DNA of 64,000 nt from a virus. Location: IMG/VR virus record IMGVR_UViG_3300025009_000054, positions 78,705 to 142,704 of that record; one strand, written 5' to 3'. Below the pieces are notes generated by a model. That model had not been told where the DNA came from, searched no databases, and worked only from the letters and a program-made list of their open reading frames with translations. Position 1 is the stretch's first letter. Each line of letters opens with the position of its first letter. Positions 1-60,328 of the stretch are shown one piece after another. A program made the position numbers and the translations under genes.

Positions 1-1940
1 CATCCGCTAGCCCTTCCCGTATTACACATGACCTCAAGCACACGCCCATCAGTATCCTTATTTACAGTAATATATATACTGCCACAGTTTCCAACCTTAA
101 ATACCGACGTGCTACCAGATAGAAGCTGTGGCCTAGTAGTAGATCTTATATCCTCCGGTGTATGGGTTTTCCCACCAGCAGACATTGGTTGATTCTCACG
201 GCAGTTATTTCTATATACTGTCATTCCTTTACACCCAGTCTCATATGCCAACTTTATAGCACCAGCGACATCTTCAACTGTGGAGTTGTTATTCATATTA
301 ATGGTTTTGCTAATGGATAGATCTATATGCTCCTGAAACGCTGCTTGCATTTTGATATGATCAGACCAATGTATATCGTGCGCACATACAAATAGCCTCT
401 TCAGGGACGACGGGAGTCCTGTAATATTTTGAATTGATCCATCATGTTTTTTTGCAATCTCACTAATTAAATCATTCGACCATATACCAGCACGTTTTGA
501 TTCATCGACAAACATGGGGTGAACTTCACTCATCTCAGTGCCATCAAGTACTGTCCTGGTATAAGCCACTGAGTACATCGGCTCTATACCGCCAGTGACA
601 CCTGCAATTATTGATAACGACCCAGTCGGTGCTACACACGTCCTAGTAGCATTACGGATAGCGTACTTACCATCGTATATACTGCCACTCCACGCTGGAA
701 ATGCACCACGTTCATTAGCCATATAAATAGATTCTTCGGTAGCAATATTTGAGATAGCCTGCATTACCATCTTACCAGTATCACGAGCTTCTTCGGAATC
801 ATATCTCAGTCCAAGTTTGAGTAGCATTTCTGCCCAGCCCATAACGCCTAACCCAATCTTGCGTGTGAGCAGCGTAGCATCTTTGATTTCTGGAAGTGGG
901 TAACAATTGACATCTATTACATTGTCGAGGAATCTTACTGCAGTTCTAACAGTAGATTCCAATATATCCATGTCTATTTTTGGCATATCATCATTAGTGA
1001 CCATTAAAGATAAGTTGATAGACCCCAAATTGCATGACTCGTTGGTTAACTGTGGCACTTCTGCACAGGGATTGCAGCCCTCTATCTCACCAAGATGTGG
1101 AGTTGGATTATATCTATTAATATTACCCCTGAATAGTATTCCAGGCTCTCCAGTTGCATGCGCATTATTAACGAGTGCATCGAATAATTGAACGGCACTA
1201 ATTGTGGTTCTATTTCCAGTTGTAGGACACACAAGGTCATATTTACTATTGGTATTGACGGCATCCATAAACGCATCATCCACTAATACGCTTATATTGA
1301 AATTTTTGAGTTTACTTAGATTACTCTTACACTTAATAAACTCAAAAATATCTGGATGGCCTATGGGCATGAGAGCCATATTGGCACCCATGCGCGCACT
1401 ACCTTGTTGCACAGCATCCGTACAAGCATTGATAGCTTCTATAAACGATATTGGTCCACCGGCCTTACCATTTGTCGATGATACCAGAGCTCCCTTTGGC
1501 CTAATATGACCAAAATTAGCTCCAACCCCTCCACCCGACTTATGAATTAAGGCAAATTGCTTGATCGTATCAAATATACCTTCCATCGAATCTGGTAATG
1601 ATAGCGTAAAACATGCCGCGAGTTGTCCATTATCTCGACCGGCATTGATTAGAGTAGGTGTGTTTGGAAGAAAATGCATATTACTCATTAGCGTGTAGAA
1701 GTCAATGGCCTGGCTTATCACATCTTCCATGGATGACCCATATTGCTTATCAGCCATAGCAATAGCAGCAGCTACACGTGCAAACATATCACGCGGACTT
1801 TCTATGCAGTTACCAGCACTATCTTTACGTAGATATCTCTTAGTAAGTAGTGTAGTAGCATTGTCGCTCAACACAGGATCTAGATCTACCTGAGCGTGTA
1901 TCTCAGCAATAATATCATAGGTGTTAAATTCGATAGGCAC
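1..1940 (-). CDS. nrdJ: Class II (B12-dependent) ribonucleotide reductase, 3' end runs off the window
   Basis: Not in the ORF track because there is no stop in the window. Hand translation from GTG at 1940 (GGAGG upstream) gives KRYLRKD, FLPNTPTLINAG, QLAACF, GGGVGANF, GEPGILF, catalytic NPCAE and SISKTIN, followed by a TSCPD-like C-terminal segment; NPCAE and SISKTIN were checked to be in frame with the start. Confidence 0.92.
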   Translation of the reverse strand, partial: MPIEFNTYDIIAEIHAQVDLDPVLSDNATTLLTKRYLRKDSAGNCIESPRDMFARVAAAIAMADKQYGSSMEDVISQAIDFYTLMSNMHFLPNTPTLINAGRDNGQLAACFTLSLPDSMEGIFDTIKQFALIHKSGGGVGANFGHIRPKGALVSSTNGKAGGPISFIEAINACTDAVQQGSARMGANMALMPIGHPDIFEFIKCKSNLSKLKNFNISVLVDDAFMDAVNTNSKYDLVCPTTGNRTTISAVQLFDALVNNAHATGEPGILFRGNINRYNPTPHLGEIEGCNPCAEVPQLTNESCNLGSINLSLMVTNDDMPKIDMDILESTVRTAVRFLDNVIDVNCYPLPEIKDATLLTRKIGLGVMGWAEMLLKLGLRYDSEEARDTGKMVMQAISNIATEESIYMANERGAFPAWSGSIYDGKYAIRNATRTCVAPTGSLSIIAGVTGGIEPMYSVAYTRTVLDGTEMSEVHPMFVDESKRAGIWSNDLISEIAKKHDGSIQNITGLPSSLKRLFVCAHDIHWSDHIKMQAAFQEHIDLSISKTINMNNNSTVEDVAGAIKLAYETGCKGMTVYRNNCRENQPMSAGGKTHTPEDIRSTTRPQLLSGSTSVFKVGNCGSIYITVNKDTDGRVLEVMCNTGRASG

Positions 1941-1942
1941 TA

Positions 1943-3196
1943 TTATCTTCCTCCAGGGTTTATTGCTCTTTTGATTCTCATAAGCGAGAACCTGTCATAT
2001 CTTATATCGAGATTATCACGATTAAACCGCATACTCTCGACCTTGGCATTATCACACCAGCCACATTCTATCGTAGACGCAGCATAATTACGACCACTAC
2101 TGTATGTGTTGCCATTAGACATATGACTACATGCTATGATATGTGATGCGAATGCTGGTATATCATCATCGGTTCCAGATGCCTTACATATGTTCTGCAT
2201 CATTTTACCCGTATCAACCCCAAGCGACGCTATCACACTATACATTGATTCAATCATGTAGAGAGTTAAATTATACGCTTCGGGATAGATCATTCTCTCA
2301 TTTGCAGAATTTGTTAAATCCCGCTCGTGCCATGTTGGGATGTTCTCCATCGCAACAACCACGTATGATCTGACCATCCTAGCGAGGGAACATATACGTT
2401 CACATAATCCTGGATTTTTACCAGACTTATGTTTCATTGACGACGACCCAGCCGCAGATTCCTTCGACACCTCATATACCTCATCAATTTCCGGACGAGC
2501 GAGGTTTCTTATCTCTGTTGCAATACGCTCTAGGGTGCTAGCTATAAGTGCTAGCTGACATATATACTTAGCATATACCGATCTATCGACGATCTGCGAC
2601 GACGCTGCCGCTGGATATAGTCCCAGTATATAGCACGCTTTCCTCTCGACATCTGGATCGAGTACATTATACGACCCAACTGGTCCAGACATCTTACCAT
2701 AATACTCGTTAGCATTGAGATCATTGATGTGTCTTGTTATATCCCATATCCAGCTAGCCAATTTGCTAGAAAATTTCATTGGTTCTGCCCACTGTCCATG
2801 CGTCCTACCAATAATTATAGCACCAGAATTATCTTTAGCACACTTCTCTATGGCATTTCTAAATTCGACCAGTGAAGACATTATCTGTGTACCACTACGC
2901 ATACACATTAGCGACATCGATGTATCCATAACATCTGATGCCGCTAGTCCATAGTATACTGGAACGCATTCTGGATATTTATCCTCTACCCATGAGATGA
3001 AACCTATCATTTCATGAACATATTCATTGATAAATGCGTTGATAACTGGTAAGTCACCACCTAATATCTCTGGTATGCATTTTTTGGTAGACAAGCCATG
3101 CGATTTAATTACAGCATTCATAACCTGTGCCCAGGTTTGGTATTTGGATAGATCACTCCAAATACCATTACATTTGGTATCGTATCGGCTAGTCAT
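1943..3196 (-). CDS. purB: Adenylosuccinate lyase (divergent PurB)
   Basis: GRTHGQWAEP, GKMSGPVG, QIVDR, ERIATEIRNL, GSSSMKHKSGKNP (variant of SSxMPxKxN), WHERDLTNSANER. Confidence 0.92.
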   Translation of the reverse strand: MTSRYDTKCNGIWSDLSKYQTWAQVMNAVIKSHGLSTKKCIPEILGGDLPVINAFINEYVHEMIGFISWVEDKYPECVPVYYGLAASDVMDTSMSLMCMRSGTQIMSSLVEFRNAIEKCAKDNSGAIIIGRTHGQWAEPMKFSSKLASWIWDITRHINDLNANEYYGKMSGPVGSYNVLDPDVERKACYILGLYPAAASSQIVDRSVYAKYICQLALIASTLERIATEIRNLARPEIDEVYEVSKESAAGSSSMKHKSGKNPGLCERICSLARMVRSYVVVAMENIPTWHERDLTNSANERMIYPEAYNLTLYMIESMYSVIASLGVDTGKMMQNICKASGTDDDIPAFASHIIACSHMSNGNTYSSGRNYAASTIECGWCDNAKVESMRFNRDNLDIRYDRFSLMRIKRAINPGGR

Positions 3197-3198
3197 TA

Positions 3199-4044
3199 TT
3201 AGCCCTCCACACGCACTAACATCTTAATATCGGTAATACCCTTAACACCTTCTAAATAAGCAAACCCATCATTTATTGACATTAATCGATATCTAGTAGT
3301 ACCATGCAACATACGAACTACATCTCCATCATGCAACTCTACACCATGCGCGTCATCATTTTTACCTGGTGTCACTGGCACGTTACTGATTATAGGAACG
3401 TTAGTACTCCTAAGCAGAGTTGATATACCATCTTCCTCAATGCGACCCCACAAACCGCGCAGTACCAGTATCGATATAATCGCATAGTTCGACATGTCGC
3501 CCATGGTTTCAATTACGCTCTCTCCACCATCATCGAGTTTGTTCTGAAGAATATTGCGCATGCGGCATGTCTTATCATGCATTCGGCTGTGAATGCCAGT
3601 AACACCAACGTCAGATAGGTTCTCATTACTGTATTTTCGACCACGCTCAACCATAATGGATAAGTTGCGATCACACATTTTCTTAACCTGCTGATCTACC
3701 TGCGCTGCATCCATATAGATTAGATTGTCCTCATCGAATAATCCTGACGATGCTACTAGCTGTCCAACAACTCCATATACCGCGATTCGCTTAAATATGT
3801 CTATGGCAGCGCAGCAAGCTTCACGACTAATCTCACTACCAGTATATACACACGGCTTTAGGTTGTCAATATCACCCATACCGACGAGCACTCCAGCGTC
3901 TAACCATAACATCTGACACGATGCCAGTATTCCATCTACCCCTATCCTGCTAACGACTGACATTGAACGTGGTGTATCGGTTAGCATGTTGATCGCAGCA
4001 GCCCCAATACTGTCTACTTCTGTACTAAGTATCGATATTTTCAC
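3199..4044 (-). CDS. Protein with Nmad1/DUF1599 (all-alpha NTP-pyrophosphatase-like) domain
   Basis: Central segment RGRKYS...GIHSRMHDKTCRMRN...ESVIETMGDMSNYAII matches the DUF1599 pattern (K..DYG, R..DK..R, ES..DT..D..NY). Start moved to GTG 4044 behind GGAGG. Confidence 0.7.
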   Translation of the reverse strand: MKISILSTEVDSIGAAAINMLTDTPRSMSVVSRIGVDGILASCQMLWLDAGVLVGMGDIDNLKPCVYTGSEISREACCAAIDIFKRIAVYGVVGQLVASSGLFDEDNLIYMDAAQVDQQVKKMCDRNLSIMVERGRKYSNENLSDVGVTGIHSRMHDKTCRMRNILQNKLDDGGESVIETMGDMSNYAIISILVLRGLWGRIEEDGISTLLRSTNVPIISNVPVTPGKNDDAHGVELHDGDVVRMLHGTTRYRLMSINDGFAYLEGVKGITDIKMLVRVEG

Positions 4045-4045
4045 A

Positions 4046-6742
4046 TTACGCCTCCACACTCTCTTGACTACCAGATGGCATCCCACCACCTAGCGTCGGC
4101 TGACCATCGGATGGCTCAAACCACGAAGTCGTTTCGCCATCCCATACTGCATGGACGATACCTTCTCTGCCACCTCTATTCTTACTAATATTAATTATAT
4201 GTCTGCCATACTTAAATCCAATCTCATTTATGATCTTCTCAGGTTTCTTCTGTGGAATCATGAATGTATCGCAGTCAGCCCATATCTTCTTCGATCCACC
4301 AACATGCTCGGCACCTATCGGATTAAATTCTCTCTTTTGATCCATCATGCCAATAGCTGATGCCGATAACTGTGCGGCACACACAGCAGCTATATCTAAA
4401 TTTCCTGCCATATTTTTAATACCGGTGGATACATCTCTATACTCTGCCCATAGTTCACCTGAGGAATGCGACTCGCTTCCGAGTAGCTGTATGTAATCTA
4501 TAAAGACGGCAGATATATCGTATTTCAGTTTATACAAATGGGTGATAGCTGAAACAGCCTGAATTGATGCACCGTACTTTGTTTCAATAAATATGGGCAT
4601 TTGGCTTATGGCATATGCAGCATCTTTAACCATATCGAGTTCTAACTGAGTTAGATACCCGTACTGCATGGCGTTTATGGTCACACGCTGTCCAAACATT
4701 ATCCATATGAGCATTGAGTATAACCTAGTCATAACGTCACCATCTTCCATCTCCATGTTGACGAAGAGGACAGGTGCACCCTGTAATGCCATGACAAGTG
4801 CTATCTTTAGCATAAGCGCACTCTTGCCTTGTCCAGGCAATGCTCCTATGACGATATACTTCTGTTTCCTGATACCGCCAAGTGTAAGCGATAATGCTGG
4901 GAATTGTGGTCTAAGGTCAAATCCTGGTAACGTGCCTGGATTTGCCACCTGGTTTATGATGAACCTCGTAGTCCTATCGACCAGAGCAATCCTATTGTGT
5001 TCTCCATCACCATCAGATGACCCTCTAACAGCGATGGCAACTACGTCACCGCTTATCTTAGATACTATTTCATCAGATGATATCGACGCGTCAATACACA
5101 TCGACATTGTACCAGTCATTTTTTCATATAGGGTACGTCTCTTATACCTATCGATAATTATATCTAAGCACGACTGCCAATCCTCATACGACGCACTAAA
5201 TACAGCATCGACATTCGTTTGAGATACCAAATTGCCTTTACCAGACGCAACTATATTAGAGTGTACGACATGGGCAGTAGGTACTCCGGCCTTGGCACGT
5301 TCTTCTACGATCGCGCTAAATATGAATTTATTTGAGAATACATAGAAGCAGTCCTCTGTCAGCGACGATACACACTGTGCATATATCTGCTCATTACCAG
5401 CCATAGCCGATAATATTTTATTTTCGGACGTCGCATCAGATAATACTGACGTATCATATATTCCAGACGATACGCATGCAGTAATTGTTTGCTGATCGAT
5501 TCCTACGGCATCAGATATGCATTTACACGCTATTGCTTTGTTAAGTGGACTCAATGTATGGACTCTAGAGCGTACCTTGTTTATGAGCATATGTACATCA
5601 AGCACGTTGTCTACTACTGTATCAAGCATAGACTGTTCTATATAGTATTGAGCAAAATGCGTTGCATTGTTGAGCTTATCATCAATTGACGCAATACCAT
5701 GAGTATTTATGACGTCATCTGGGTCTAGTCCTGGTGGCAATGTTACGATATCTAATATCATGCCATCATCTATACTAAGCTGTGATACTAAATTATATAG
5801 ACCTTTTCTGCCACCAGCATCACCATCCCACATTAGCGAAATTCTAGATGCGCCATATTGTTTAGCAGTCATAACCTGTTCTGGCGATAGGTTGACGTTC
5901 ATAACTCCAACTGTAGATAGCCTATTACATGAATGCATGCGCATCACATCGAAAAATCCCTCTACAGCAATGAGCCGACCACTCTCTCTTATATGCTTTC
6001 GAGCTCTATGCATACCATATAACGGTGATGCAATCGGGTATACAGGAGAATTCCTACTGGTACCAGCCCATTTATCCTTTGATGGCGTCATAGCTCTACC
6101 ACGAAAGAATACTATATCACCCTCAGCATCATGTATCGGGAATATCAACCTCCCACCGAATAGATTATCGTTTGTGAGCTCTAACCTATCAATGGTAATA
6201 TCATCAACACCAGCACTACGCATGGCTACGATAAGGTCATGGGCATGCTCCGTATATCCTAAATTGAAGTCGTCCTGTGTCTGAGACGGAATCTGCCTCA
6301 CATCAGTAACATACTCAACTATCTTTTTATTCTGAAGGTACATCTGGTGCATTACGTCAGCGGCCATACCATTGATTCCGCACAAATAGTCATGCCACTG
6401 TTCCTCTATGGTAGGCTCTCTAAGATAATCTTTGATATCTATATTAAAATCGACACTAAATTGTTCAACAGCTTCTATGAACGTCAATCCTAGATATGCT
6501 TGAATAAATCGTATAACATCTTTTCCATGCTTATCGGAACAGCTACCGAAGCATTTCCATATTTGTTTACGATCGCTTACTACGAAACTAGGGTCATTAT
6601 CAGCGTGGAATGGACAACAGCACCTACTTACGGATCCTGCCTTCTCTAAGACTATATATCTACCAATTGCATCTGATAGTGGAACAGCATTTGATATGAA
6701 CTGGATTAGACCTTGTGGGTCACGAACTCTTAATTTTCCCAT
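4046..6742 (-). CDS. DnaG-type primase fused to DnaB-type replicative helicase
   Basis: CHC2 zinc finger CCPFH...WKCFGSC; TOPRIM VEGFFDV, WDGDAGG and DPDD; DnaB N-terminal region; Walker A GALPGQGKS, NMEM, IDYIQLL, AQL, KNRGG. Confidence 0.93.
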   Translation of the reverse strand: MGKLRVRDPQGLIQFISNAVPLSDAIGRYIVLEKAGSVSRCCCPFHADNDPSFVVSDRKQIWKCFGSCSDKHGKDVIRFIQAYLGLTFIEAVEQFSVDFNIDIKDYLREPTIEEQWHDYLCGINGMAADVMHQMYLQNKKIVEYVTDVRQIPSQTQDDFNLGYTEHAHDLIVAMRSAGVDDITIDRLELTNDNLFGGRLIFPIHDAEGDIVFFRGRAMTPSKDKWAGTSRNSPVYPIASPLYGMHRARKHIRESGRLIAVEGFFDVMRMHSCNRLSTVGVMNVNLSPEQVMTAKQYGASRISLMWDGDAGGRKGLYNLVSQLSIDDGMILDIVTLPPGLDPDDVINTHGIASIDDKLNNATHFAQYYIEQSMLDTVVDNVLDVHMLINKVRSRVHTLSPLNKAIACKCISDAVGIDQQTITACVSSGIYDTSVLSDATSENKILSAMAGNEQIYAQCVSSLTEDCFYVFSNKFIFSAIVEERAKAGVPTAHVVHSNIVASGKGNLVSQTNVDAVFSASYEDWQSCLDIIIDRYKRRTLYEKMTGTMSMCIDASISSDEIVSKISGDVVAIAVRGSSDGDGEHNRIALVDRTTRFIINQVANPGTLPGFDLRPQFPALSLTLGGIRKQKYIVIGALPGQGKSALMLKIALVMALQGAPVLFVNMEMEDGDVMTRLYSMLIWIMFGQRVTINAMQYGYLTQLELDMVKDAAYAISQMPIFIETKYGASIQAVSAITHLYKLKYDISAVFIDYIQLLGSESHSSGELWAEYRDVSTGIKNMAGNLDIAAVCAAQLSASAIGMMDQKREFNPIGAEHVGGSKKIWADCDTFMIPQKKPEKIINEIGFKYGRHIINISKNRGGREGIVHAVWDGETTSWFEPSDGQPTLGGGMPSGSQESVEA

Positions 6743-10814: not shown

Positions 10815-11204
10815 CTATGTCAAGCTTGACTCTAAAGCATGCTTATCATCCTGAGCAGATGTAGAGCCAGCTCCCATACCACCCTTGTCTGGATCACTAG
10901 CCCAATCACGCTTAAATACCTCTGTTGATACTTCGGTAATCGCGTCCTGCAAATCTATGCCCTCGGCACTACAATACCCAGCTAGAAATACTATAACATC
11001 AGCAACAGCGTCTCTAGCCTTTGATAGATATGTCTCTCTTGTCATGCCACGTATACCCTGAACACTCTTTAGATGCGCGTGTGCTAATTCACCTATTTCC
11101 TCTACGGCTCCAAGTAGACAGTGATACGGCACTTGCTCACCAAAATTCCTATCAGACCACTCCTTTTGATTTCTCTGTAATTCTCGAAATGTTAGCTCAC
11201 TCAC
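10815..11204 (-). CDS. MazG-like nucleotide pyrophosphohydrolase (MazZ candidate)
   Basis: ELQ...W..RNF, EEIGELA, DAVADVIVFL, GIDL, KRDW: single-domain all-alpha NTP-PPase. Confidence 0.85.
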   Translation of the reverse strand: MSELTFRELQRNQKEWSDRNFGEQVPYHCLLGAVEEIGELAHAHLKSVQGIRGMTRETYLSKARDAVADVIVFLAGYCSAEGIDLQDAITEVSTEVFKRDWASDPDKGGMGAGSTSAQDDKHALESSLT

Positions 11205-14137
11205 AGTGATAGTACCTCATACCCTTCATCAGTCGCGTATTTTACCCTATTTCTATGATGCTTCGATAGATACCTACAATTCATATCGGCAATGTCAAGA
11301 ACAAGACCATTCTTCTTATCAGGTCTATTTGGATCTTTCCTCATGACACGACCAACACGCTGTATATACATGCCACGCTCAGCACCATCAACCACCACAA
11401 TTAAGTCTAAACTAGGAACATCAACACCCTCATTAATGAGTGTAGTTATCATGCATTTAAGCTCACGGCTCTTAAGTTTAGTAAATGCACGTTTTCTATC
11501 GCCTTTACTATCACTACTAATAAGCAAGATAGCACCAGGTATTAGGGGTAGTAAATTTTTACCATGCTCCACTTTACTAATAGCTATAGCTACAGTAGAT
11601 CCACTATCCATAGCACGTATTACACTATCGGCTATCATTTGGTTACGTTCTGCATTGTCTATAATGAGTTGTCTATAGACATCGTTATATGATATGTCAA
11701 TTTCCTTACGACATTTTGGACAATAACCTTTGTGGCCTACGAACGATGCTGAGAATTCGATTACATTACCACATTTGCCCTTACCGACCTTAGTTGGGCA
11801 TATAACCTTAATAATATTTTTAGAATGATCAAATTTCTCGCACCTGATAATGGGCGGGACCAATATTCCAGCATCTATAATCTCTTTTGGACGTGCCATA
11901 TACAGCATCCTCGGAAGAGCCGCTTCAATAAGCAGGTCTGTGTCATCGTCACGGTAAGGCGTCGCTGAGTTATGTACTAATACCCCATTAGCCACAAACG
12001 ATGGATGCCCATCCATTTCTAAATCATATACATAGTCGATACTATCAAATACTGATAGTCCAGTATCCTTGATTTGCACCTCATTAAATGAGTAGTTACT
12101 ATGGCAATATTTTGATCTTGTACCGCTACGACCATTATTCTTACCATTCATAGCATTAGTAGACCATGTTACTATATATGACGGATGTTTACCGATAATT
12201 TTCCTACCATACACAGTTCCACCATCACGTGGTCCGGATTTTGGTGATGTAGATCCCGAAACACCTATACTACGAAGCAAACACAGAATATCCATAACTA
12301 ACTTATAGGATGTCGTGGTGTAATAACACCTTTTGCGATTTCTCGATCTTTCTGCACTATGACCATCAGAATCTATTAATCCATTTAATAATTGACGTCT
12401 AGACTGATATGACCATGAAAAAAGACACTCACCTGGTATATGCTTCGTTAAATGGTTTACCTTACCAAAATACGATTGGAATATATCGACTAATATAGCA
12501 CTATTTATCTCTACCTGGGTAGATCCATCTCGTTTATCAAGTGTTAGATTACAATGTAGCCATGACATACTATTCACTTTACTGATAAATGCATCAACAT
12601 CTTCACTACATATCGAAAAACACAATTGATTTGTATCTATCCAACCATCTCCAATAAAATAGCCCATAATATATGCTAAATCTACAGTTGGAATGTACGC
12701 ATCCACCCACCCACCATGTGAATTACCAGAATAGATCCTAGTTGGTTTTGGCAATATATTTTTATGTTGTTTATATATACTTAACGACAAATAGTGTCCA
12801 TACTGACCACGATTCCTAAACCTAAACCATGCTTTTGGGTCCAAATTTAATGCTCGACGATTAGTACTCGTCAAATCAACACATACTAGGGTTCCTGAGT
12901 CATCAGCTCTATCTGACGCGTCGATCATATCAATACCACGATCACACCAATCTATTCCATCATCTCCAATTAATACATCACCAATAATCAAATCCTGGGC
13001 TGATGCTTCAGACACTATAACCTGATGTTTGGTATCTCCAATATTTCTACCACCAGGTACTATCTTATATATGGAATGATCATTCGTCGTATTTAGCCAA
13101 GTTCCGTATACACGTACACCTGGTAGCTCACTAGATGCCGGTACATGCCTAATAAAATTTTTGATAGGTTTCCATGCAAACTTATCACCAGTCCAACCAC
13201 GTGACATTATGCCCTGACCAGATACATCTATAATCTCATATCCATCAGATGTTATATGTGATGCCATGTCAGTACAAGAAGCAATATAGAAAGCATCTGC
13301 GATTTTACAATGTTGTCCAGTCCCAAAAGGACCACCAATAAGCTCTACATACGATTCGCTATGAACTGATAAACCTACGCGTACGTCGGCCTCGGAAAAG
13401 GCTCCGAAGGTATCGAAAACTGTCTGGGCTCGTAGGTGGTGCATTTCATCGCAAAACACGACTCTCGTGTTTTTAATCATATTCTTAAGGTCATTTGTCC
13501 GATAATCGTCCTTTGAACTCATGATCTTACCAATAGTCTGCAATGTCGCAACAGTCACCACATTAGGTTCAAATACAGTATCACCAACTATTCCAATACC
13601 GGTACTCGGTAAATACTCCTTAAATGATTCATATGTCTGATATAAGAGCTCTATATTATGTACCAGAAACACTGATGGAACACCCATTTCAGCTATGGCG
13701 TGAGCGGCAAGTAGTGTCTTACCAGACCCAGTAGGGAGACATATCACGCCACATTTCTTCTCAAGTATTGCTTGACACGCGGCCTTCTGATAATCTCTAG
13801 GATCTCTATTGGGTGTCCAATCGAACTTATCCTCATACCCCTTCTGAATACGATGGTCAATAATATCAATCTTAATATCTGGTCTAGCCTTAGATATAGC
13901 CCATTTTACTCTATCGACAAGTCCTGTTGGAAATTCATATGTGTCAGAGTTAAAAACTGATACAATGCCCGACATATTCTTTTGTGCCCATTTAGACCTA
14001 TGTTTAAACCCAGGATCCTTATATGAGCACACTGAGCACGCATGGCCTACAGCATTTATTGGGTCGTAATCGCACTCTTCAATAATTATTTTACTATACG
14101 CAGACCTTACATCTATTTTCATTACTGGTTTCCCCAT
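11201..14137 (-). CDS. SF2 DNA helicase (UvsW/XPB-like) interrupted by an intein
   Basis: Q motif PRDYQ, LPTGSGKT, DEMHH, motif III GL|SATP split by the intein, EGVDVP, QRVGRVMR; extra CxxC-type zinc ribbon in the C-extein. Confidence 0.92.
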   Translation of the reverse strand: MGKPVMKIDVRSAYSKIIIEECDYDPINAVGHACSVCSYKDPGFKHRSKWAQKNMSGIVSVFNSDTYEFPTGLVDRVKWAISKARPDIKIDIIDHRIQKGYEDKFDWTPNRDPRDYQKAACQAILEKKCGVICLPTGSGKTLLAAHAIAEMGVPSVFLVHNIELLYQTYESFKEYLPSTGIGIVGDTVFEPNVVTVATLQTIGKIMSSKDDYRTNDLKNMIKNTRVVFCDEMHHLRAQTVFDTFGAFSEADVRVGLSVHSESYVELIGGPFGTGQHCKIADAFYIASCTDMASHITSDGYEIIDVSGQGIMSRGWTGDKFAWKPIKNFIRHVPASSELPGVRVYGTWLNTTNDHSIYKIVPGGRNIGDTKHQVIVSEASAQDLIIGDVLIGDDGIDWCDRGIDMIDASDRADDSGTLVCVDLTSTNRRALNLDPKAWFRFRNRGQYGHYLSLSIYKQHKNILPKPTRIYSGNSHGGWVDAYIPTVDLAYIMGYFIGDGWIDTNQLCFSICSEDVDAFISKVNSMSWLHCNLTLDKRDGSTQVEINSAILVDIFQSYFGKVNHLTKHIPGECLFSWSYQSRRQLLNGLIDSDGHSAERSRNRKRCYYTTTSYKLVMDILCLLRSIGVSGSTSPKSGPRDGGTVYGRKIIGKHPSYIVTWSTNAMNGKNNGRSGTRSKYCHSNYSFNEVQIKDTGLSVFDSIDYVYDLEMDGHPSFVANGVLVHNSATPYRDDDTDLLIEAALPRMLYMARPKEIIDAGILVPPIIRCEKFDHSKNIIKVICPTKVGKGKCGNVIEFSASFVGHKGYCPKCRKEIDISYNDVYRQLIIDNAERNQMIADSVIRAMDSGSTVAIAISKVEHGKNLLPLIPGAILLISSDSKGDRKRAFTKLKSRELKCMITTLINEGVDVPSLDLIVVVDGAERGMYIQRVGRVMRKDPNRPDKKNGLVLDIADMNCRYLSKHHRNRVKYATDEGYEVLSL
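11969..13369 (-). mobile_element. Intein (467 aa) with LAGLIDADG homing endonuclease in helicase motif III
   Basis: Begins SVHSESYV (Ser1), block B TTNDHS, IMGYFIGDG and LLNGLIDSDG, ends YVYDLEM...NGVLVHN followed by Ser+1; removal restores GLSATP. Confidence 0.92.
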
Positions 14138-14485: not shown

Positions 14486-15298
14486 TCATACGCCATATAA
14501 ATCTAGATTTATAATCGCGTTTTTATATGTAGCCTCTACTAAGTCATTTCCTGTATAGTTTCTCCCCTCTTGTAACGAAGCTATACCCATACTAGCAGTA
14601 CCACAAAATGGATCTATTATGGTCTGTCCAGGGTCTGTATATGTAAGAACTAACCTTCTACATATCTCAATTGGTAACTGGTTTAGGCCAAGACGAGGGC
14701 TCCCCTTCTTATGAAATGATCTAGATATGGTACTACATATATCGGAGATCAATCTACCACCAGGATTCCTCTTATCCTCTTTACCACCATAATCAGATAG
14801 ATACTTCTTACAATGTCTACATACTACATGGGGTTCACGTATGCGATGAAACGTCGACTCATATTCACTGAACCTATCATTCGGCATCCTACGCTTTCTA
14901 AGGACTAAGAACGCATAATGCCTAGGATATAGACCATACTTTTTGGGTCGAGCCCCACTAGGTGCATCCCAAGCTATCCAATGTGCGAACTCTATCCAAT
15001 GATTTGTGCATATCTGCGCACCAGCCATCATAGTCTCATATGGCATGTGATGTAGTATGATCCATCCACCTGGCTTCACAGCAACAGCAGCATCTTCAAC
15101 CCAACGATAGAGTTTTGATAAGTATATCCCATTATCTATACTGTCATTGACACTATCACCATACTGTACGTCTAAATTGAATGGTGGATCAAGAAATACC
15201 ATATCTGGCCTATTATTGCGACTAAGGATTGACTTTATAAAATCGTTATATTCCTTATTATGCATTTCATACGGCATTATTAGATATCCTTTAACCAT
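14486..15298 (-). CDS. Amino (N4-C/N6-A) DNA methyltransferase, beta-class order
   Basis: Catalytic DPPF N-terminal, SAM-binding DPFCGTAS C-terminal, internal CRHC. Confidence 0.88.
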   Translation of the reverse strand: MVKGYLIMPYEMHNKEYNDFIKSILSRNNRPDMVFLDPPFNLDVQYGDSVNDSIDNGIYLSKLYRWVEDAAVAVKPGGWIILHHMPYETMMAGAQICTNHWIEFAHWIAWDAPSGARPKKYGLYPRHYAFLVLRKRRMPNDRFSEYESTFHRIREPHVVCRHCKKYLSDYGGKEDKRNPGGRLISDICSTISRSFHKKGSPRLGLNQLPIEICRRLVLTYTDPGQTIIDPFCGTASMGIASLQEGRNYTGNDLVEATYKNAIINLDLYGV

Positions 15299-16505: not shown

Positions 16506-17010
16506 CTAATAGTCCAGCCATTTTACACATCGTTACCCAATCGGACATTTGCATAACAACAAATCTATTAGTATCTCCCTTGATATGAAAACCCATCCAC
16601 GGAATCTTAGGCGGGCTACACTCGCCTGCATCTCTTATTATATCGTCTAAATCTTTTCTTGGTAACACAATATTCTTCTGCACTACACTATGTGGAGTAA
16701 TATCTTTACACTCACCAAGTAATTTGTTACTAACAATATCACCTTTACCGAACTCTTTACTACTACCGGAGTATGGTACTCGATCAGAACCTGTAGCCTT
16801 AGCAAATGCTTTTTCATTTGCCTTACCACGTGCGCGGTTTCTACGGTTTCGCTTTATACGCTCAAATTTGTCAACACGTGCCTTTTCTAGTATATCGGCT
16901 TTCGCAGTATCTGTAAGCGTATCAAGCACTAACTTATATTTATCAAGAGCCTTCGTCTGTTCCGCTGGAGTTAGTATTGTGTTCTCCAGAGTCACCTTCT
17001 TTGATCTCAC
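16495..17010 (-). CDS. PD-(D/E)xK nuclease, Holliday-junction-resolvase-like
   Basis: GKANEKAFA...RVPYSGS...GDIV...GECKD; directly downstream of RecA. Confidence 0.65.
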   Translation of the reverse strand: MRSKKVTLENTILTPAEQTKALDKYKLVLDTLTDTAKADILEKARVDKFERIKRNRRNRARGKANEKAFAKATGSDRVPYSGSSKEFGKGDIVSNKLLGECKDITPHSVVQKNIVLPRKDLDDIIRDAGECSPPKIPWMGFHIKGDTNRFVVMQMSDWVTMCKMAGLLDGK

Positions 17011-17989
17011 TTGGCATACCAGCTTTCTGTCTTACAACGGCTATTAAATCCATAATATGCTGACAAAACACTGGATCTGATCTTAACGCAACATCTATAG
17101 CCTTCTTACCATTCCACTTTTTGTCAGTGTTAGCAAGGTAAAACCACGACGACACTTGCGTTATAATATTAAGCGAGATTGCCTCTTCGATTAGATTACC
17201 AATTATATCTATACCAGAATCAAATCTAAAGTCATACTCACCCTTGCCATACGGTGGAGCAACTGATGATTTCTCAACAATAACTCTAACTCTGTGACCT
17301 ACAACATCATCGCCCAATTTGATCTGTTCAAGTCTTTTTAGTTCTAGTCTAAGCGATGCCCAGAATTTGAGAGCCCTTCCACCGGCTGTATCTTCATTTT
17401 TACCGAACATAACCATTGGCTTAGAACGCTTCTGGTTGATAAATACTACTATACACTTCTTTTCGGCAACCTTCGGACCAATCTTCCTTAGTGCCTCAGC
17501 CATAAGTTTCGAAGTTGGTGCGATGTGGGTATCACCAATATCACCCTTAGCTTCATCTTCTGTTACAAGAGCAGCTACACTATCTAGAACGATAAAATCG
17601 AAAATATCCGCATCGATAGCATCTTCAAGTATCTGTAATGCCTCTTCACCAACCATCGGACGTGCATATACAAGTCGATCCGGATCCATTCCTAGCATCA
17701 ATGCGAATGCACCCCAGAATCTACGTTCCATATCTATCCACAGAACGTTACCACAAACATTTTTCTGTATAGACGCACCCCATACCATAGCTAAAGCTGA
17801 TTTTCCGACAGCCTCATCTCCAAATATCTCTACAATAATGCCACGCGGTGCACCACCAAGCTTGATAGCTTTATCGAGTGCTGGTATTCCTGTGGATATA
17901 ACTTCTCCAGGTGGTGGGACCTCTGTACCAACTCTACCTGGGTGTTTTTTACTCTGGGATGTTATAAAATCAGTAAGGGGACCTGCCAT
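16943..17989 (-). CDS. recA: RecA/UvsX recombinase
   Basis: ISTGIPALD, GIIVEIFGDEAVGKS, IDME, LDSVAAL, FINQ, GGRALKFWASLRL, VAPPY. Confidence 0.96.
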   Translation of the reverse strand: MAGPLTDFITSQSKKHPGRVGTEVPPPGEVISTGIPALDKAIKLGGAPRGIIVEIFGDEAVGKSALAMVWGASIQKNVCGNVLWIDMERRFWGAFALMLGMDPDRLVYARPMVGEEALQILEDAIDADIFDFIVLDSVAALVTEDEAKGDIGDTHIAPTSKLMAEALRKIGPKVAEKKCIVVFINQKRSKPMVMFGKNEDTAGGRALKFWASLRLELKRLEQIKLGDDVVGHRVRVIVEKSSVAPPYGKGEYDFRFDSGIDIIGNLIEEAISLNIITQVSSWFYLANTDKKWNGKKAIDVALRSDPVFCQHIMDLIAVVRQKAGMPSEIKEGDSGEHNTNSSGTDEGS

Positions 17990-18070: not shown

Positions 18071-19297
18071 TTAAGCTACAATGCTAGTTAGCTTAGTATC
18101 AAGCAATCTTAGCTCTTCAACCGTAAGCATATTGATATCGGCTGTTCTTCCATTGCTAGCATCCTTGATGTAAGACGCCAGCTCTGCAAAATTACTGCCA
18201 GTATCAAGTTTACGAAGCTTATCAGCAACTGCAGTACCGATTACTACCCTCTCATCAACCGGTGCCTGAGGAGGATGAACGGTTGCTGTCGGTACAGACG
18301 TCATGTTGACAAGTGCCATATCAAACGCACTCTTTAGCAGGCCAGCAGGAAGACCTGTACTGAACTCTGTCGCGTACTGTCGGTCCATTGACACTATATC
18401 CCCGACCGTCTTCCCAGGGTACTTTCCCGTTGGGCATACAATAGCTACCGCCTCATTCGGGTTTATCCTGATTTCTGATGGTCCAGGAGTGCCCATATCA
18501 CCAACTGGTCCGGACTGACCAAACTGGCCGTTAGGCATCGCAGGTGGTGGTCCGTAGGACTGCATTGGCATCGGAGCAGGTGCCCCGAACTGCTGTCCTG
18601 GTTGTGGTGCACCGAACTGCTGTGGCTGTCCGTATGACTGCATCGGAGCCGGTGCACCGAACTGCTGTGGCTGTTGTGTTTGCATACCGAACTGCTGTGG
18701 GGGAGCAGCCATTCCACCCATATTACCAACTGGCATATTAAGCTGTTGGATTAGCATTTGAATCTGTTCCATGCTTTTAGCCTGGAGTTCATCTACGGCA
18801 TCAATATCAATGAGGTCTGCTTCATTGAACTGAATCGGAGCCTGATTAGCCATAGGAATGACAGTATACTGTCCACCTTTAGCCTGTGGCCTTGTGATAA
18901 TGAAATCCACACAGGACACATCTTTATTATACGCTGTGTAAATAGCACCAATCGGATTCCAAATCTGCGTACCACCAACAAGAACCTTATGCTCAGGTTT
19001 AGGTGTATCGAGGACTAGCACGTTACATGCATGTCTCATTGCAGAAGGAAATCTCTGTCTATTCACGCACATTGGGCAAAGACCCTGGCCAAGGCACTTC
19101 TCGTAGCCTCTCCACTGTCCCCTACCATTTTCACCTTGTGGGTTATATTCATACAGCGAATGACCCCACCAGCTACACAGGTCACCAAACTTCGGATGGC
19201 CTGGTACAAAGAGCAATCTCACTCTATGAGACTCTCCAGCTTTGAATTGCAGAAGCTTACCGCTCCCACCGACTCCGTTTACGTCATTAAAAGACAT
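18071..19297 (-). CDS. gp32-like single-stranded DNA-binding protein with a Q/P/G-rich low-complexity linker
   Basis: Start re-called at ATG 19297 (GAAGGGAG). RVRLL, zinc ligands H..C..CPMC, RHACNV, DFIITR...QYTV; QQFG repeats; PTGKYPGK motif; next to recA. Confidence 0.72.
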   Translation of the reverse strand: MSFNDVNGVGGSGKLLQFKAGESHRVRLLFVPGHPKFGDLCSWWGHSLYEYNPQGENGRGQWRGYEKCLGQGLCPMCVNRQRFPSAMRHACNVLVLDTPKPEHKVLVGGTQIWNPIGAIYTAYNKDVSCVDFIITRPQAKGGQYTVIPMANQAPIQFNEADLIDIDAVDELQAKSMEQIQMLIQQLNMPVGNMGGMAAPPQQFGMQTQQPQQFGAPAPMQSYGQPQQFGAPQPGQQFGAPAPMPMQSYGPPPAMPNGQFGQSGPVGDMGTPGPSEIRINPNEAVAIVCPTGKYPGKTVGDIVSMDRQYATEFSTGLPAGLLKSAFDMALVNMTSVPTATVHPPQAPVDERVVIGTAVADKLRKLDTGSNFAELASYIKDASNGRTADINMLTVEELRLLDTKLTSIVA

Positions 19298-19389
19298 TCG
19301 TAATCTCCCTTCAGGAATTTGAATTTTGTCTGAACTATGTATAAACCCAGAGCCAACGAACATGCAAACCGACGTTGGCCCCGTAGATA

Positions 19390-20592
19390 TCAGTACTTGC
19401 TTTGATAGGCCGGTTCGAAGTCCCTCTTATATCCAGGCTTCGATGATGATTCAGGCGATAGTATGCCGGATTTGAATGCAAACTCTCTAAGTTTACCTGG
19501 ATGCATAGTGATTATATGTTCTGGGCGTGGACCCGTACTTAGCCACCCAATAGAATCAAATAAATCATATTCTGCAGCGAATTTGGCCACCCATTCTTTA
19601 CTAACCTGGGACAGACCTTCCCAAGCATTTTTACCATAGTCAATCGCGGCGATATAATCTATGAACGTGACCATTATCGATCCTGGTCGATTAATAGCAA
19701 GGGCTTTTCTAAACAATTTAGGACTAATCTCACCAACTCTTCTAACTCTCTTCGTAACAGTCGTCATTTCAATAACAGGCTTAGACGATCCACTACGAGT
19801 CTGAATTTCTTCCCACGTGAGTTCCTGAACATTCTCGTCTTCATACCCAAATGGTCCACTGTTGCCAGCAACCCTAATTGGATATGTTCTCATAACACCA
19901 TATATACTACGTACGGACATTGGTGATAGTCCAGCTTCTGCAAGCCAGTTTGCTGCGTTTGTATCTCTGGACGTAGTTTTTGGATATAAACCATGGTACA
20001 TCGATAAAGCCATTCCCTGAGTTCCTTCGAGCATAACGGGAAATCCATTGTTTACCATATTATTGAGTATCATGCATGTATCGCCGATGTAGGGTTTAAG
20101 ATAACTCACATCTTTGGCTAAGGTCACATCACCCTGCCTTTTAATCCTATCAATGAGAGCCGCACCACACCCTTCACGTGTACTACCAATAGCTTCGAAC
20201 AGATCTTTACTACCATCTTTTCCATGCTCAGCATCAATATGTTTCTGCTCAATCAGAATGGCATTTGGATCAATGACGAGTCTACCATCATCCCATACCT
20301 TTTCTTCCTTCAGCCAACCGATTTCCCGATCTAGTACGGTTGGAATAATCATAGCACCAGCACCAATTACGAGCTGTGCTTTTGGTGCCGCTATAGACCC
20401 GCATGGAATGGTTTGAAAAGCAAGCTTCTTCTTTCCATCTTTACTATAGACATAATGGCCAGCATTCGGCGATCCTGTACGCACTAAAGCACCATTATTA
20501 TATTGCCCAGCAATATGTTCACACAATTTTCCTTTTGCTTCAGAACCAAATGCGAGTCCGACGACGATATCTACGCACCTATTAGTGATCAT
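19390..20592 (-). CDS. purZ: PurZ0-like N6-succino-2-amino-deoxyadenylate synthetase (PurA family)
   Basis: GSEAKGK (Ser where PurA has Asp), PNAGH, IGST, LEGTQG, YPKTTSRD, RTYPIRV (Ile where PurA has Thr), TTVTKRVRRVG, TFID and STGP. Confidence 0.82.
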   Translation of the reverse strand: MITNRCVDIVVGLAFGSEAKGKLCEHIAGQYNNGALVRTGSPNAGHYVYSKDGKKKLAFQTIPCGSIAAPKAQLVIGAGAMIIPTVLDREIGWLKEEKVWDDGRLVIDPNAILIEQKHIDAEHGKDGSKDLFEAIGSTREGCGAALIDRIKRQGDVTLAKDVSYLKPYIGDTCMILNNMVNNGFPVMLEGTQGMALSMYHGLYPKTTSRDTNAANWLAEAGLSPMSVRSIYGVMRTYPIRVAGNSGPFGYEDENVQELTWEEIQTRSGSSKPVIEMTTVTKRVRRVGEISPKLFRKALAINRPGSIMVTFIDYIAAIDYGKNAWEGLSQVSKEWVAKFAAEYDLFDSIGWLSTGPRPEHIITMHPGKLREFAFKSGILSPESSSKPGYKRDFEPAYQSKY

Positions 20593-23058: not shown

Positions 23059-23547
23059 TTAATCTGAACACAAAATGGGGCTTGCTAAGATCATCTTCGC
23101 AACTTTCTCAGATTTCATCATGATATCTCGTATATCTTCAACTGCTGATTCACACGTACTAGCATTAATAATCTCTATTCCACTATGTATTGCGACCGGT
23201 ATAAATGATCTGTTGATGGCAGATATAGACATTTTAAAAGTACCAAAGTTATGTCCATCTCTCCAATCCCACTCAGTAAGCCCACCGACGGCACCACAAA
23301 TATGCATGAATGGTCTATGTAATTCTACTATTACATGTTCCAATAGATGTGGGACCATACCACATGACAATTCTTCAATTACAAGTAAATTATCATCATT
23401 AATACACCTGTGTCCGCCAATATTTGGGATGGCGGACACAATATTACTTATCATTCCACAGTAATAGGATACATTCAACGGTGGATCCATAATAACATCA
23501 AACATAAAATCATTATTGTATTTTGATATCGGTCCTATTACTATCAT
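23059..23547 (-). CDS. Stand-alone cyanophycin synthetase N-domain-like protein (inverted zinc motif HxxEH)
   Basis: PNIGGHRC-x18-HLLEHVIVEL...GGLTEW. Confidence 0.62.
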   Translation of the reverse strand: MIVIGPISKYNNDFMFDVIMDPPLNVSYYCGMISNIVSAIPNIGGHRCINDDNLLVIEELSCGMVPHLLEHVIVELHRPFMHICGAVGGLTEWDWRDGHNFGTFKMSISAINRSFIPVAIHSGIEIINASTCESAVEDIRDIMMKSEKVAKMILASPILCSD

Positions 23548-24773
23548 ATATTAATAATACCTGGAGGTCTATGGCCATCTTTCATTGATATGAGGTGTGC
23601 GTAGACATATGGTGTTTTATTCTCTATATGCCAATCACTAGGAAATCCAGTATATAACCTCATAGATTGAAATCTAACTGGTGTGTTTATGTATTTAGCT
23701 TGGTTTTTATTTGTGTAGTATAGAAATGAGTTTTCATTCCAAAAAGAACAATGCGTAGGGTCTTGAAATGCACCTCTACCATCTGTTGATGGTGTCATTG
23801 ATAGAAGATAGCCACCTGGTACTAATACTCTATATATCTCCTCCATAGTAAATATAGGATCTTTTAAGTGTTCAAATATGTCGTGGGCTCTTATAACTCC
23901 AACTGAATTATCTTCAAATGGCCATTTAGTATTAAGATCGGCAATGGTATCGGCACCTTCGAGATCAACACTATTCCATCCATTTGGGCAATCAAACCTT
24001 CCACCAAGGTCTAGTTTTAACAATCCGTGACTATTAGACCACTGTTCACATAGACTGTAGATATATTTATCATAGATTCGCATGACATTATTTTGTATTT
24101 CGCTATTATTTTGTAGCCATACATTGTCGCCATGAATTCTATACAAATATAGACATTTATCTATATGGTAGAACATAGTTGCAGAATAGGTTCTTGACAT
24201 GAGCTCTTGATCATCTAGAACTCTCATATCAGAATTATGCCCACCGACCGCCCAATAAATATCTGATCTCCAAGCGCGTAAATGATTGGGTGCAAACCAT
24301 ATTCTACTAACTGATGATGGAGTTGCATCAAAGGCCACCACTTCATCAACTATATGGCCTTTAAAGTACGTATCGTTACGGTATCGCCATCCATATTCCT
24401 CGCTATACCTATCTACGCTTTTGATATTTCCTTGAAAATTTGCACAATTTGAATACACAAACCCTACATTACTATCACGTTCAAATGCAAGTATAACTTC
24501 AGATATTGCATTAGGCATTAGTAAGTCATCATGGTCAACTTCTAATAATATATCTCCAGAACAATATTCACAAGCTGTGTGCTTTAGTGCACCGACATAT
24601 GGAATATGATTATTAATGATGATAGGTTTGATTCTATCATCATTAAAATCTATCACCTTCGCTCCACCATTATAAAGAATTACCCACTCATAAAATGGTT
24701 GATCTTTAATACTATCATACAATTGACACAAATATCTAGTGTCATGAGTTGGCGTAAAAATTGATACTTTCAT
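23544..24773 (-). CDS. GT2 glycosyltransferase fused to a class I SAM methyltransferase domain
   Basis: VSIFTPTH, EVDHDD (DxD), DDQELM; then KLDLGG, DLNTKWPF, HDIFEHL, EIYRVLVPGG, QDPTH. Confidence 0.85.
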   Translation of the reverse strand: MKVSIFTPTHDTRYLCQLYDSIKDQPFYEWVILYNGGAKVIDFNDDRIKPIIINNHIPYVGALKHTACEYCSGDILLEVDHDDLLMPNAISEVILAFERDSNVGFVYSNCANFQGNIKSVDRYSEEYGWRYRNDTYFKGHIVDEVVAFDATPSSVSRIWFAPNHLRAWRSDIYWAVGGHNSDMRVLDDQELMSRTYSATMFYHIDKCLYLYRIHGDNVWLQNNSEIQNNVMRIYDKYIYSLCEQWSNSHGLLKLDLGGRFDCPNGWNSVDLEGADTIADLNTKWPFEDNSVGVIRAHDIFEHLKDPIFTMEEIYRVLVPGGYLLSMTPSTDGRGAFQDPTHCSFWNENSFLYYTNKNQAKYINTPVRFQSMRLYTGFPSDWHIENKTPYVYAHLISMKDGHRPPGIINI

Positions 24774-59172: not shown

Positions 59173-59740
59173 CACTACCTCCAATATCCTCTGTACCAAC
59201 AGGCACGTTGATCTCCTGCTCGTCCACTTCTAATTCATCGGAGAACATTCTGAGCATTTGCCCAAGTCTTATTACAGCATCAAGGTGTGGAAACCATATA
59301 TTTAATTCACGATCAGCCGATTCAACAGAATCTGATGCGTGAATTAAATTTTTTGGCAACTCGCCACCAAAATCCCCACGAATTGTACCCTTTTCCGCTT
59401 TAGACGGATCCTTGTTACCTATCATATCGCGTACCACCTGTACGCAATTCTCGCCCTCGACTGCCAATAGGAGTAATGCACCGGACATCATATGATCTAT
59501 GTTACGCTGGTAGAAATCTTTACCCTCATGCTCAGCGTAGAGTTCTTTCAGAGCTTTTAGTATTTTGCCATTTTCATCGTGTGTGGGGTCTATCATGGCA
59601 TAGTGCAGACACCCTATACCAGCATTTTTGAATCGATCCATAATTTGATCTGCAGTACATGGATCGATTCCAGCCTTGATATCTTCATTACTTCTCTCTA
59701 ACGCGTCCGGTTTTAGTATTATTAACGTTCTCTGAATCAC
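59156..59740 (-). CDS. ndk: Nucleoside diphosphate kinase
   Basis: RTLIILKPDA, YAEH, MMSG, GTIRGDFG, NLIHASDS (phospho-His). Confidence 0.95.
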   Translation of the reverse strand: MIQRTLIILKPDALERSNEDIKAGIDPCTADQIMDRFKNAGIGCLHYAMIDPTHDENGKILKALKELYAEHEGKDFYQRNIDHMMSGALLLLAVEGENCVQVVRDMIGNKDPSKAEKGTIRGDFGGELPKNLIHASDSVESADRELNIWFPHLDAVIRLGQMLRMFSDELEVDEQEINVPVGTEDIGGSDADPE

Positions 59741-60226: not shown

Positions 60227-60267
60227 TATGCCTCCTGTTTGATGTGGACTGCTAAATGTGGTGTGCA

Positions 60268-60328
60268 TGAGCGTGGGTGATAGGCCCCACGCTCACTGTG
60301 GCACAATGCTCGGAAACTCATCCGAGCA
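60268..60328. repeat. Two adjacent hairpins in the leader of the dCMP deaminase-ndk-ligase operon
   Basis: TGAGCGTGGG/CCCACGCTCA (60268-60295) and TGCTCGGA/TCCGAGCA (60307-60328). Confidence 0.6.

Follow-up and report, generated by a model that had tools for sequence, protein, structure and literature searches.

A PurZ-family synthetase gene with PurZ0-like residues in a large groundwater phage genome

The PurZ-like gene and its active site

We identified a gene for a PurZ-family synthetase in a 64-kb stretch of DNA from an uncultured virus. Enzymes of this family are known from phages in whose DNA the Z base (2-aminoadenine) replaces adenine. The stretch, referred to here as the window, is the last 64 kb of the 142,704-bp IMG/VR record IMGVR_UViG_3300025009_000054 (G000), which is linear and about 82% complete. 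The record has a GC content of about 41% and carries almost all of its genes on one strand, and the same DNA is present in groundwater metagenomes of a single study. The gene is as follows:

Window 19390-20592, minus strand: PurZ-family synthetase P0001, PurZ0-like by residues, 400 amino acids (aa), PF00709

This interval is exactly one open reading frame (ORF), including its stop codon, with an ATG start. The gene is intact and tightly packed, as a Shine-Dalgarno sequence (AGGAGGA) lies 9 nt 5' of the ATG and 16 nt separate the start codon from the end of the preceding ORF. P0001 matches the Pfam adenylosuccinate synthetase family PF00709 (E 8.9e-48). Its best sequence match in the PDB is PurA of P. 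horikoshii (5k7x, 4.6e-45), followed by 7vf6 (9e-37), which is PurZ0 of Gordonia phage Archimedes (PMC12884076), phiVC8 PurZ (6fm1, 2e-35) and S-2L PurZ (7odx, 1.7e-24). An AlphaFold model built from a 16-sequence alignment (predicted local distance difference test, pLDDT, 87.3; predicted template modelling score, pTM, 0.88) superposes on P. horikoshii PurA, phiVC8 PurZ and PurZ0 7VF6; Foldseek placed 5k7x at the top (target TM-score, TMt, 0.90), then 6fm1 (0.85), 7vf6 (0.82) and 7odx (0.78). A megablast of the P0001 region against 50,697 phage records gave no match.

P0001 was aligned with E. coli PurA, four short archaeal PurA, four PurZ0, three PurZ and the Bacillus phage vB_BpsS-140 protein, and PurZ0 was defined following PMC12884076, a 2025 bioRxiv preprint and PDB titles. 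The residue states at the active site are:

E. coli D13: Asp in PurA; S17 in P0001; Ser in PurZ0; Ser in classical PurZ
E. coli E14: Glu in PurA; E18 in P0001; Glu in PurZ0; Thr in classical PurZ
Thr of P/S-T-R-V: Thr in PurA; I239 in P0001; Ile in PurZ0; Ile in classical PurZ
Gly before T-V-T: Gly in PurA; T277 in P0001; Thr in PurZ0; Thr in classical PurZ (phiVC8 T262)
E. coli R303: Arg in PurA; R282 in P0001; Lys in PurZ0; Lys or Leu in classical PurZ
E. coli T330: Thr in PurA; T309 in P0001; Thr or Ser in PurZ0; Asn in classical PurZ
E. coli K331: Lys, Gly or Cys in PurA; F310 in P0001; Met or Phe in PurZ0; Phe in classical PurZ
E. coli D333: Asp in PurA; D312 in P0001; Asp in PurZ0; Asn (phiVC8, Acinetobacter) or Gln (S-2L) in classical PurZ
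E. coli V334 (read from the printed alignment): Val, Lys or Arg in PurA; Y313 in P0001; Gln or Ser in PurZ0; Tyr in classical PurZ
E. coli S414-P417: STGP in PurA (GTGP in one archaeal sequence); STGP in P0001; GTGP, ATSP or TTSP in PurZ0; GFGP or GWGD in classical PurZ

The initial annotation, made from the DNA letters without database searches, had read G-S17-EAKGK in place of the PurA motif GDxxKG, YPIRV in place of the PurA threonine, and a retained arginine in TTVTKR. All three were recovered, as G16-S17-E-A-K-G-K, Y237-P-I-R-V and T277-T-V-T-K-R282, in columns that are homologous in the reference alignment. To these motifs the alignment adds a third PurZ-type change, T277 for the PurA glycine. 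The states of S17, I239 and T277 are common to all seven PurZ and PurZ0 references and occur in none of the five PurA references. The loop after P-I-R-V has the same two-residue insertion as phiVC8 PurZ and PurZ0, an insertion that has been linked to a valine pushed toward C2' (PMC8342488). Judged by these residues, the substrate pocket of P0001 is of the PurZ type.

The donor side differs. Replacement of Asp333 by Asn in E. coli PurA switches the donor from GTP to xanthosine triphosphate (XTP), and we therefore take an aspartate at this position as a guanine determinant. P0001 has D312 there, where phiVC8 and S-2L PurZ have N297 and Q308. In S-2L PurZ, N305 and Q308 bind the 6-amino group of adenine and F306 stacks the base (PMC8342488), and in phiVC8 PurZ, F295 and Y298 stabilise the adenine ring of ATP (2025 bioRxiv preprint). 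The motifs T309-F-I-D312 and S352-T-G-P, which the initial annotation had called GTP-specifying, are of the PurA/PurZ0 type as claimed, but they come together with F310 and Y313 of the ATP-using PurZ, which it did not mention. From the aligned residue states, the base-recognising donor residues (T309, D312 and STGP) are thus PurA/PurZ0-type and the substrate side is PurZ-type, and the predicted donor pocket is a hybrid of guanine-type residues and the PurZ aromatic pair F310/Y313.

We predict, with a probability of about 0.68, that 19390-20592 encodes a PurZ-family enzyme and not a working PurA, and that this enzyme would most likely act on 2'-deoxyguanosine monophosphate (dGMP) and aspartate with GTP as donor.

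Phylogenetic placement, distribution and known relatives

Trees were inferred by quick IQ-TREE searches (LG+C20+F+G4 by posterior mean site frequencies, PMSF) from 114 rows and, in a second tree, 88 rows, with long bacterial-type PurA as the outgroup; supports are values of the Shimodaira-Hasegawa-like approximate likelihood ratio test (SH-aLRT) from these quick searches. Grouping with bona fide PurA, which the initial annotation had set against its own reading, was not found. P0001 instead falls inside a single Ser-type clade, apart from the short archaeal Asp-type PurA, with SH-aLRT of 100 (114 rows) and 99 (88 rows). Four PurZ0 references and two viral contigs form a six-row clade without P0001 (SH-aLRT 99), and PurZ of phiVC8, S-2L and an Acinetobacter phage form a long-branch clade (SH-aLRT 100) that groups with vB_BpsS-140. 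The smallest supported clade that holds P0001 has 19 rows (SH-aLRT 97), all metagenomic; it includes L095, L096, L097, L099 and L101, which are on contigs of 103-184 kb, and also P0005, the row most similar to P0001 (52-53%). In both trees P0001 lies in a group that also holds classical PurZ (SH-aLRT 95 and 83). The backbone between the Ser-type clades is essentially a polytomy, and forcing the 43-row group of P0001 and the 21-row group with PurZ0 into one clade was not rejected (approximately unbiased, AU, test p 0.53).

On this alignment and these trees, P0001 is PurZ0-like by residues but no member of the named PurZ0 clade, the monophyletic subgroup of PMC12884076. The proposed match to the PurZ0 intermediate consequently stands for the residue states and fails for the clade, as P0001 belongs to a clade of its own outside that of the actinophage enzymes. 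At least two groups kept apart in the trees show the switch of the donor aspartate to asparagine: classical PurZ and a 335-aa group from the candidate phyla radiation (CPR) with the motif F-L-N-Y.

Among isolated phages, the best matches to P0001 are actinophage PurZ0 (31-37% identity), followed by Vibrio and Acinetobacter phage PurZ (28-30%). Metagenome databases hold many closer relatives, at up to 51% identity; they are labelled 'adenylosuccinate synthase', in line with the earlier expectation that automated pipelines would call such a gene purA. An exhaustive search with P0001 returned 603 cluster representatives at E <= 1e-30. We surveyed the residue states of 257 homologues of at least 300 aa. 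The catalytic position is Ser in 252 of them and the isoleucine of PIRV is present in 256; the donor aspartate is kept in 200 and replaced by asparagine in 56. Because 182 of the 257 share the joint Ser-Glu-Asp state, the residue combination of P0001 is not rare, and nothing sets the gene apart within its large, uncharacterised family.

PurZ-like homologues were found on 256 IMG/VR stretches and on more than 550 stretches of prokaryote genome contigs, among which are probable prophages across many phyla as well as CPR and DPANN genomes. In three of the five genomes checked, the Ser-type protein (G-S-E-A/G-K-G, P-I-R-V) is the sole PF00709 homologue found. These are a Saccharibacteria genome (CPR; L016/L177, on a 484-kb contig of a genome of ~0.6 Mb), a Nanoarchaeota genome (L019/L178) and an Aenigmatarchaeota genome (L018/L179), the latter two belonging to DPANN. 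In Archaeoglobaceae and Cenarchaeum genomes, a Ser-type protein stands beside a normal Asp-type PurA.

Several homologues depart from the architecture of P0001. Many Ser-type proteins from bacterial genomes are fusions of 500-750 aa with one or two N-terminal P-loop domains resembling nucleoside monophosphate (NMP) kinases (AAA_18, AAA_17, AAA_33); these include P0155, P0163, P0143, P0230 and P0245, as well as L035, L046 and others from chromosomes of Bacteroidota, Ignavibacteriota, Acidobacteriota and Planctomycetota. The homologue P0222 has a C-terminal dCTP-deaminase/dUTPase-like domain. A protein from an Archaeoglobaceae metagenome-assembled genome (L052/L186) has Gly at the catalytic Asp/Ser position (G-G-E-G-K-G) and groups with the viral contig L119; it fits the archaeal sequences with Ser or Gly that are mentioned in PMC12884076.

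P0001 has features of each of the characterised enzyme types. With actinophage PurZ0 (Archimedes 7VF6, Ghobes, Wayne and Hiyaa) it shares G-S-E-A-K-G, P-I-R-V, T-T-V-T, R-R-V-G and the guanine-specifying aspartate. It differs from them in its 31-37% identity, in its position outside their clade, and in having R282, F310/Y313 and STGP where they have Lys, Met or Phe with Gln or Ser, and GTGP, ATSP or TTSP; the phenylalanine is missing from three of the four PurZ0 references and the tyrosine from all four. The short archaeal PurA of P. horikoshii (PH0438, 5K7X/2D7U), the best PDB match by both sequence and structure (34% identity), has the same short architecture, aspartate, STGP and arginine equivalent to R303. 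In contrast to P0001, with S17, I239 and T277, archaeal PurA has GDEGKG, P-T-R-V and G-T-V-T, and the branch between them has a support of 99-100. The classical ATP-using PurZ (phiVC8 6FM1, S-2L 7ODX and Acinetobacter phages) has the Ser, Ile and Thr of the substrate pocket and the Phe and Tyr of F-x-x-Y, but reads G-S-T-G-K-G-L, N-F-x-N/Q-Y and G-F-G-P, without the aspartate, where P0001 has E18, T309 and D312. The vB_BpsS-140 protein, annotated 'purA', is of the Ser-Glu type like P0001, but is 30.5% identical to it and has Asn in place of the aspartate (L-N-F-A-N-Y).

Nucleotide, replication and neighbouring genes

The record encodes the following further genes of nucleotide metabolism and replication:

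Window 3-1940, minus strand: ribonucleotide reductase (RNR) large subunit, PF02867 5.5e-134 and PF00317 5.8e-23; the N-terminal 646 of 752 aa are in the window
Window 1943-3196, minus strand: PurB-like adenylosuccinate lyase, 417 aa, PF00206 1.1e-28, PDB 1c3u 2.4e-61
Window 3199-4089, minus strand: 296-aa protein with a DUF1599 (Nmad1)-like middle domain, PF07659 0.0036, below cut-off
Window 10815-11204, minus strand: MazG/HisE-like all-alpha NTP pyrophosphohydrolase, 129 aa, PF01503 3.4e-4, 21.4 bits against a cut-off of 21.3
Window 59156-59740, minus strand: nucleoside diphosphate kinase (NDK), 194 aa, PF00334 3.9e-36
Window 59765-60268: dCMP deaminase
G000 63026-66187: DnaE-type polymerase III alpha subunit, the only polymerase found in the record
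G000 76346-77239 (L005:16346-17239), minus strand, about 1.5 kb before the window: dUTPase fusion P0265, 297 aa
G000 77715-78338, about 0.4 kb before the window: ThyX

The PurB-like lyase is 34% identical (E 1e-50) to the PurB-like protein of Streptomyces phage Hiyaa, and L095, the nearest viral relative, carries a PurB-like gene immediately upstream of its PurZ-like one. In our genome the RNR gene is directly downstream of the purB-like gene and would serve general deoxynucleoside triphosphate supply. The MazG-like protein shares 26% identity along its length with S-2L MazZ (pairwise E 6e-5), and its best PDB match is the MazG-like SSO3215 (1e-3); on this similarity it is a candidate MazZ analogue that would give dGMP from dGTP.

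The 296-aa DUF1599-like protein is a candidate nucleotide-pool enzyme, a function suggested by its neighbourhood. Its residues 128-224 match small ORFs near PurZ-like genes in six other viral contigs, within ~2.5 kb downstream of the PurZ-like gene in five and ~50 bp upstream in the sixth. Five of these ORFs were scanned and all match DUF1599, one of them over the cut-off; two are fused to a nucleoside 2-deoxyribosyltransferase (NDT) domain. Since such fusions lie beside the PurZ-like gene, directly downstream in L104 (11058-11786) and directly upstream in L122 (9078-9956), DUF1599 may be tied to the NDT/DmtZ branch of Z metabolism. A word-index search with the 296-aa protein returned the protein itself and nothing else.

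The C-terminal dUTPase domain of P0265 (PF00692 3.9e-22) is 39% identical to that of the DmtZ-DutZ fusion of Wayne. Its N-terminal 170 aa weakly resemble a circularly permuted DmtZ/NDT domain (hhalign probability 45-56%), in which the first half of the DmtZ-like domains of Wayne and Hiyaa corresponds to residues 98-135 (Y-L-S-G-P-M-D...) and the second half to residues 9-63 (..D-L-S-I-G-T-A-Q-E-L-E-Y-A..). Structure leads for this domain from the ESM Atlas include NDT and 'circularly permutated YpsA SLOG'. P0265 has no PF05014 match, and a word-index search with its N-terminal 170 aa returned P0265 itself and no sequence homologue. An upstream 106-aa ORF, considered as a missing first NDT half lost by frameshift, was ruled out on reading the ORF. 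A Dut gene is present at 40 of 80 viral PurZ-like loci, and in most listed cases it starts within ~200 bp downstream of the PurZ-like gene.

Two sets of companion genes are known from Z-DNA phages: PurZ with DatZ, MazZ and a PolA-type DpoZ (PrimPol in S-2L), and PurZ0 with DutZ, DmtZ and a second PolA-type DpoZ. PurZ0 genomes carry dutZ, usually with dmtZ and often fused to it (PMC12884076). Like the actinophage PurZ0 genomes, ours has a dUTPase-domain gene and, as in Hiyaa, a PurB-like gene, but its Dut gene is about 21 kb from P0001, whereas in the actinophages it is a few genes downstream. Our genome also exceeds 143 kb and encodes DnaE, no PolA having been found, whereas the actinophage genomes are 43-83 kb with PolA. 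Its MazG-like protein is distantly similar to MazZ of S-2L. Of the five viral genomes nearest to ours, four likewise have DnaE and no PolA, including two that are rated complete, and the fifth has PolA. In a limited literature collection we found no paper linking PurZ to a DnaE-type phage polymerase.

The genes next to P0001 keep an order seen elsewhere. The PurZ-like gene, a gene for a protein of ~400-430 aa with a Q/P-rich linker (window 18071-19363, minus strand) and recA (16943-17989, minus strand) follow one another as in vB_BpsS-140, whose purA is followed by an inserted HNH endonuclease gene; several viral relatives have RecA no more than about 3 kb from their PurZ-like gene. A role of the 430-aa neighbour as a pathway enzyme was weighed and discarded: the protein matches no family, contains the Q/P-rich linker and shows no similarity to Hiyaa gp68. 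The neighbour is weakly similar to the equivalent vB_BpsS-140 gene (E 3e-5) and looks more like a DNA-binding partner of RecA.

Elsewhere, the window encodes a 978-aa superfamily-2 helicase (11201-14137, minus strand) split by an insert that resembles an intein and has a LAGLIDADG domain (PF14528 3.6e-11); this insert has a weak, below-cut-off match to Intein_splicing. Glycosyltransferase and S-adenosylmethionine (SAM)-methyltransferase genes lie at window 23544-24773 (minus strand) and at G000 71232-73313, 69569-70216 and 68922-69572, and include a GT2-methyltransferase fusion and a 693-aa GT9-GT1 protein. No tRNA genes were found in the 64-kb window.

Substrate, donor and a possible route to Z-DNA

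Several observations weigh against the use of dGMP and GTP for Z-DNA synthesis. F310 and Y313 match F295 and Y298, the adenine-stacking pair of phiVC8 PurZ, so we infer GTP as donor with this reservation. An enzyme that carries out the PurZ-family reaction on dGMP with ATP or dATP, or with either purine triphosphate, and would be functionally a PurZ or a dual-donor enzyme, appears unlikely. It would account for the aromatic pair, given the stacking role of S-2L F306 (PMC8342488) and the lack of the phenylalanine in three and of the tyrosine in all four of the actinophage PurZ0 references, and for the grouping of P0001 with classical PurZ in both quick trees. That grouping is not robust, however, as the AU test indicates, and D312, T309 and STGP are guanine-type, with the N297/Q308 and N305 of the ATP-using enzymes not present in P0001. 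Moreover, the F310-type phenylalanine occurs in 225 and the Y313-type tyrosine in 250 of the 257 homologues, whatever the residue at position 312, and the two residues thus do not track the Asp-to-Asn switch.

On the substrate side, R282 is the counterpart of E. coli R303, an arginine in contact with both the aspartate substrate and O2' of IMP (PMC8342488), and GMP could therefore be the substrate. P0001 would then act on GMP, PurB would yield 2-amino-AMP, and this would be phosphorylated, reduced by the phage RNR and finished by NDK, for dZTP or another use of a Z-ribonucleotide. We consider this route quite improbable. In its favour, the characterised PurZ and PurZ0 have Lys or Leu at the arginine position (PMC8342488), purB, RNR and NDK are all phage-encoded, with purB abutting the RNR gene, and some CPR and DPANN genomes have a Ser-type enzyme as their only PurA homologue. 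RNR and NDK, however, are common phage genes without a link to Z, the MazG-like and Dut-like proteins that would make deoxynucleoside monophosphates are present, and the insertion after P-I-R-V, tied to the valine near C2', is shared with phiVC8 PurZ and PurZ0. It is very improbable indeed that the gene is an auxiliary metabolic gene for an ordinary PurA, which together with the phage PurB would raise AMP production from IMP in the infected cell. The GTP-type pocket, R282, the co-encoded PurB and the best PDB match would suit such a role, but the catalytic aspartate, conserved in 99% of the PurA group (PMC12884076), is Ser in P0001, its IMP pocket has Ile and Thr in place of the PurA Thr and Gly, and the protein lies inside the Ser-type clade, split from Asp-bearing archaeal PurA.

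Three further points count against Z-DNA synthesis from dGMP. The 142.7-kb record, itself about 82% complete, yielded no match to HD/DatZ, DUF550, DUF5664, NDT (Pfam), PrimPol or PolA/DpoZ (PF00476). The genome, although predicted to replace A by Z, encodes a DNA N6/N4 methyltransferase (window 14486-15298, minus strand, PF01555 2.9e-22). As the Ser-type protein is the sole PF00709 gene in those CPR and DPANN genomes, the Ser and Ile states may not always mean Z-DNA synthesis.

Under the preferred reading, in which P0001 is a PurZ-family enzyme that uses dGMP and GTP, dGMP would arise from dGTP through the action of the MazG-like, DUF1599-like or Dut-like enzymes. P0001 would, like PurZ0 and as its residues suggest, make N6-succino-2-amino-2'-deoxyadenylate from dGMP, aspartate and GTP, and the phage PurB-like lyase, judged by homology, would release the Z deoxynucleoside monophosphate (dZMP) from this intermediate. 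A host or other NMP kinase would yield dZDP, the phage NDK would form dZTP, and the phage DnaE-type polymerase would incorporate it, placing Z in the virion DNA. By analogy with DutZ/DmtZ (PMC12884076), the Dut-like fusion may lower dATP.

Extended to the relatives of this phage, we tentatively suggest, at somewhat less than even odds, that a lineage of ~100-170 kb phages makes ZTGC-DNA with a family-C (DnaE-type) replicase by a largely self-encoded route without DpoZ or DatZ. This route would comprise the PurZ0-like synthetase, PurB, NDK, the MazG-like and DUF1599-like pyrophosphatases and the permuted NDT-like/dUTPase fusion; entry at the ribonucleotide level, through GMP and the phage reductase, is possible in this lineage.

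The enzyme class is already known; what is new are the lineage, the hybrid nature of the donor pocket and an accessory set that includes a family-C polymerase. Three residues (Ser, Ile and Thr) tell Ser-type proteins that pipelines call 'adenylosuccinate synthase' from PurA. With P0001, the PurZ0-like residue state reaches a separate clade of large groundwater phages, which encode PurB, NDK and a DnaE-type polymerase alongside it. Ser-Glu-Asp is the majority state of a very large family and not a rare intermediate, which bears on the proposed path from archaeal PurA through PurZ0 to PurZ. If Z is truly in the DNA of these phages, a family-C polymerase replicates Z-DNA, and the pool enzymes that keep adenine out differ from those of the known sets.

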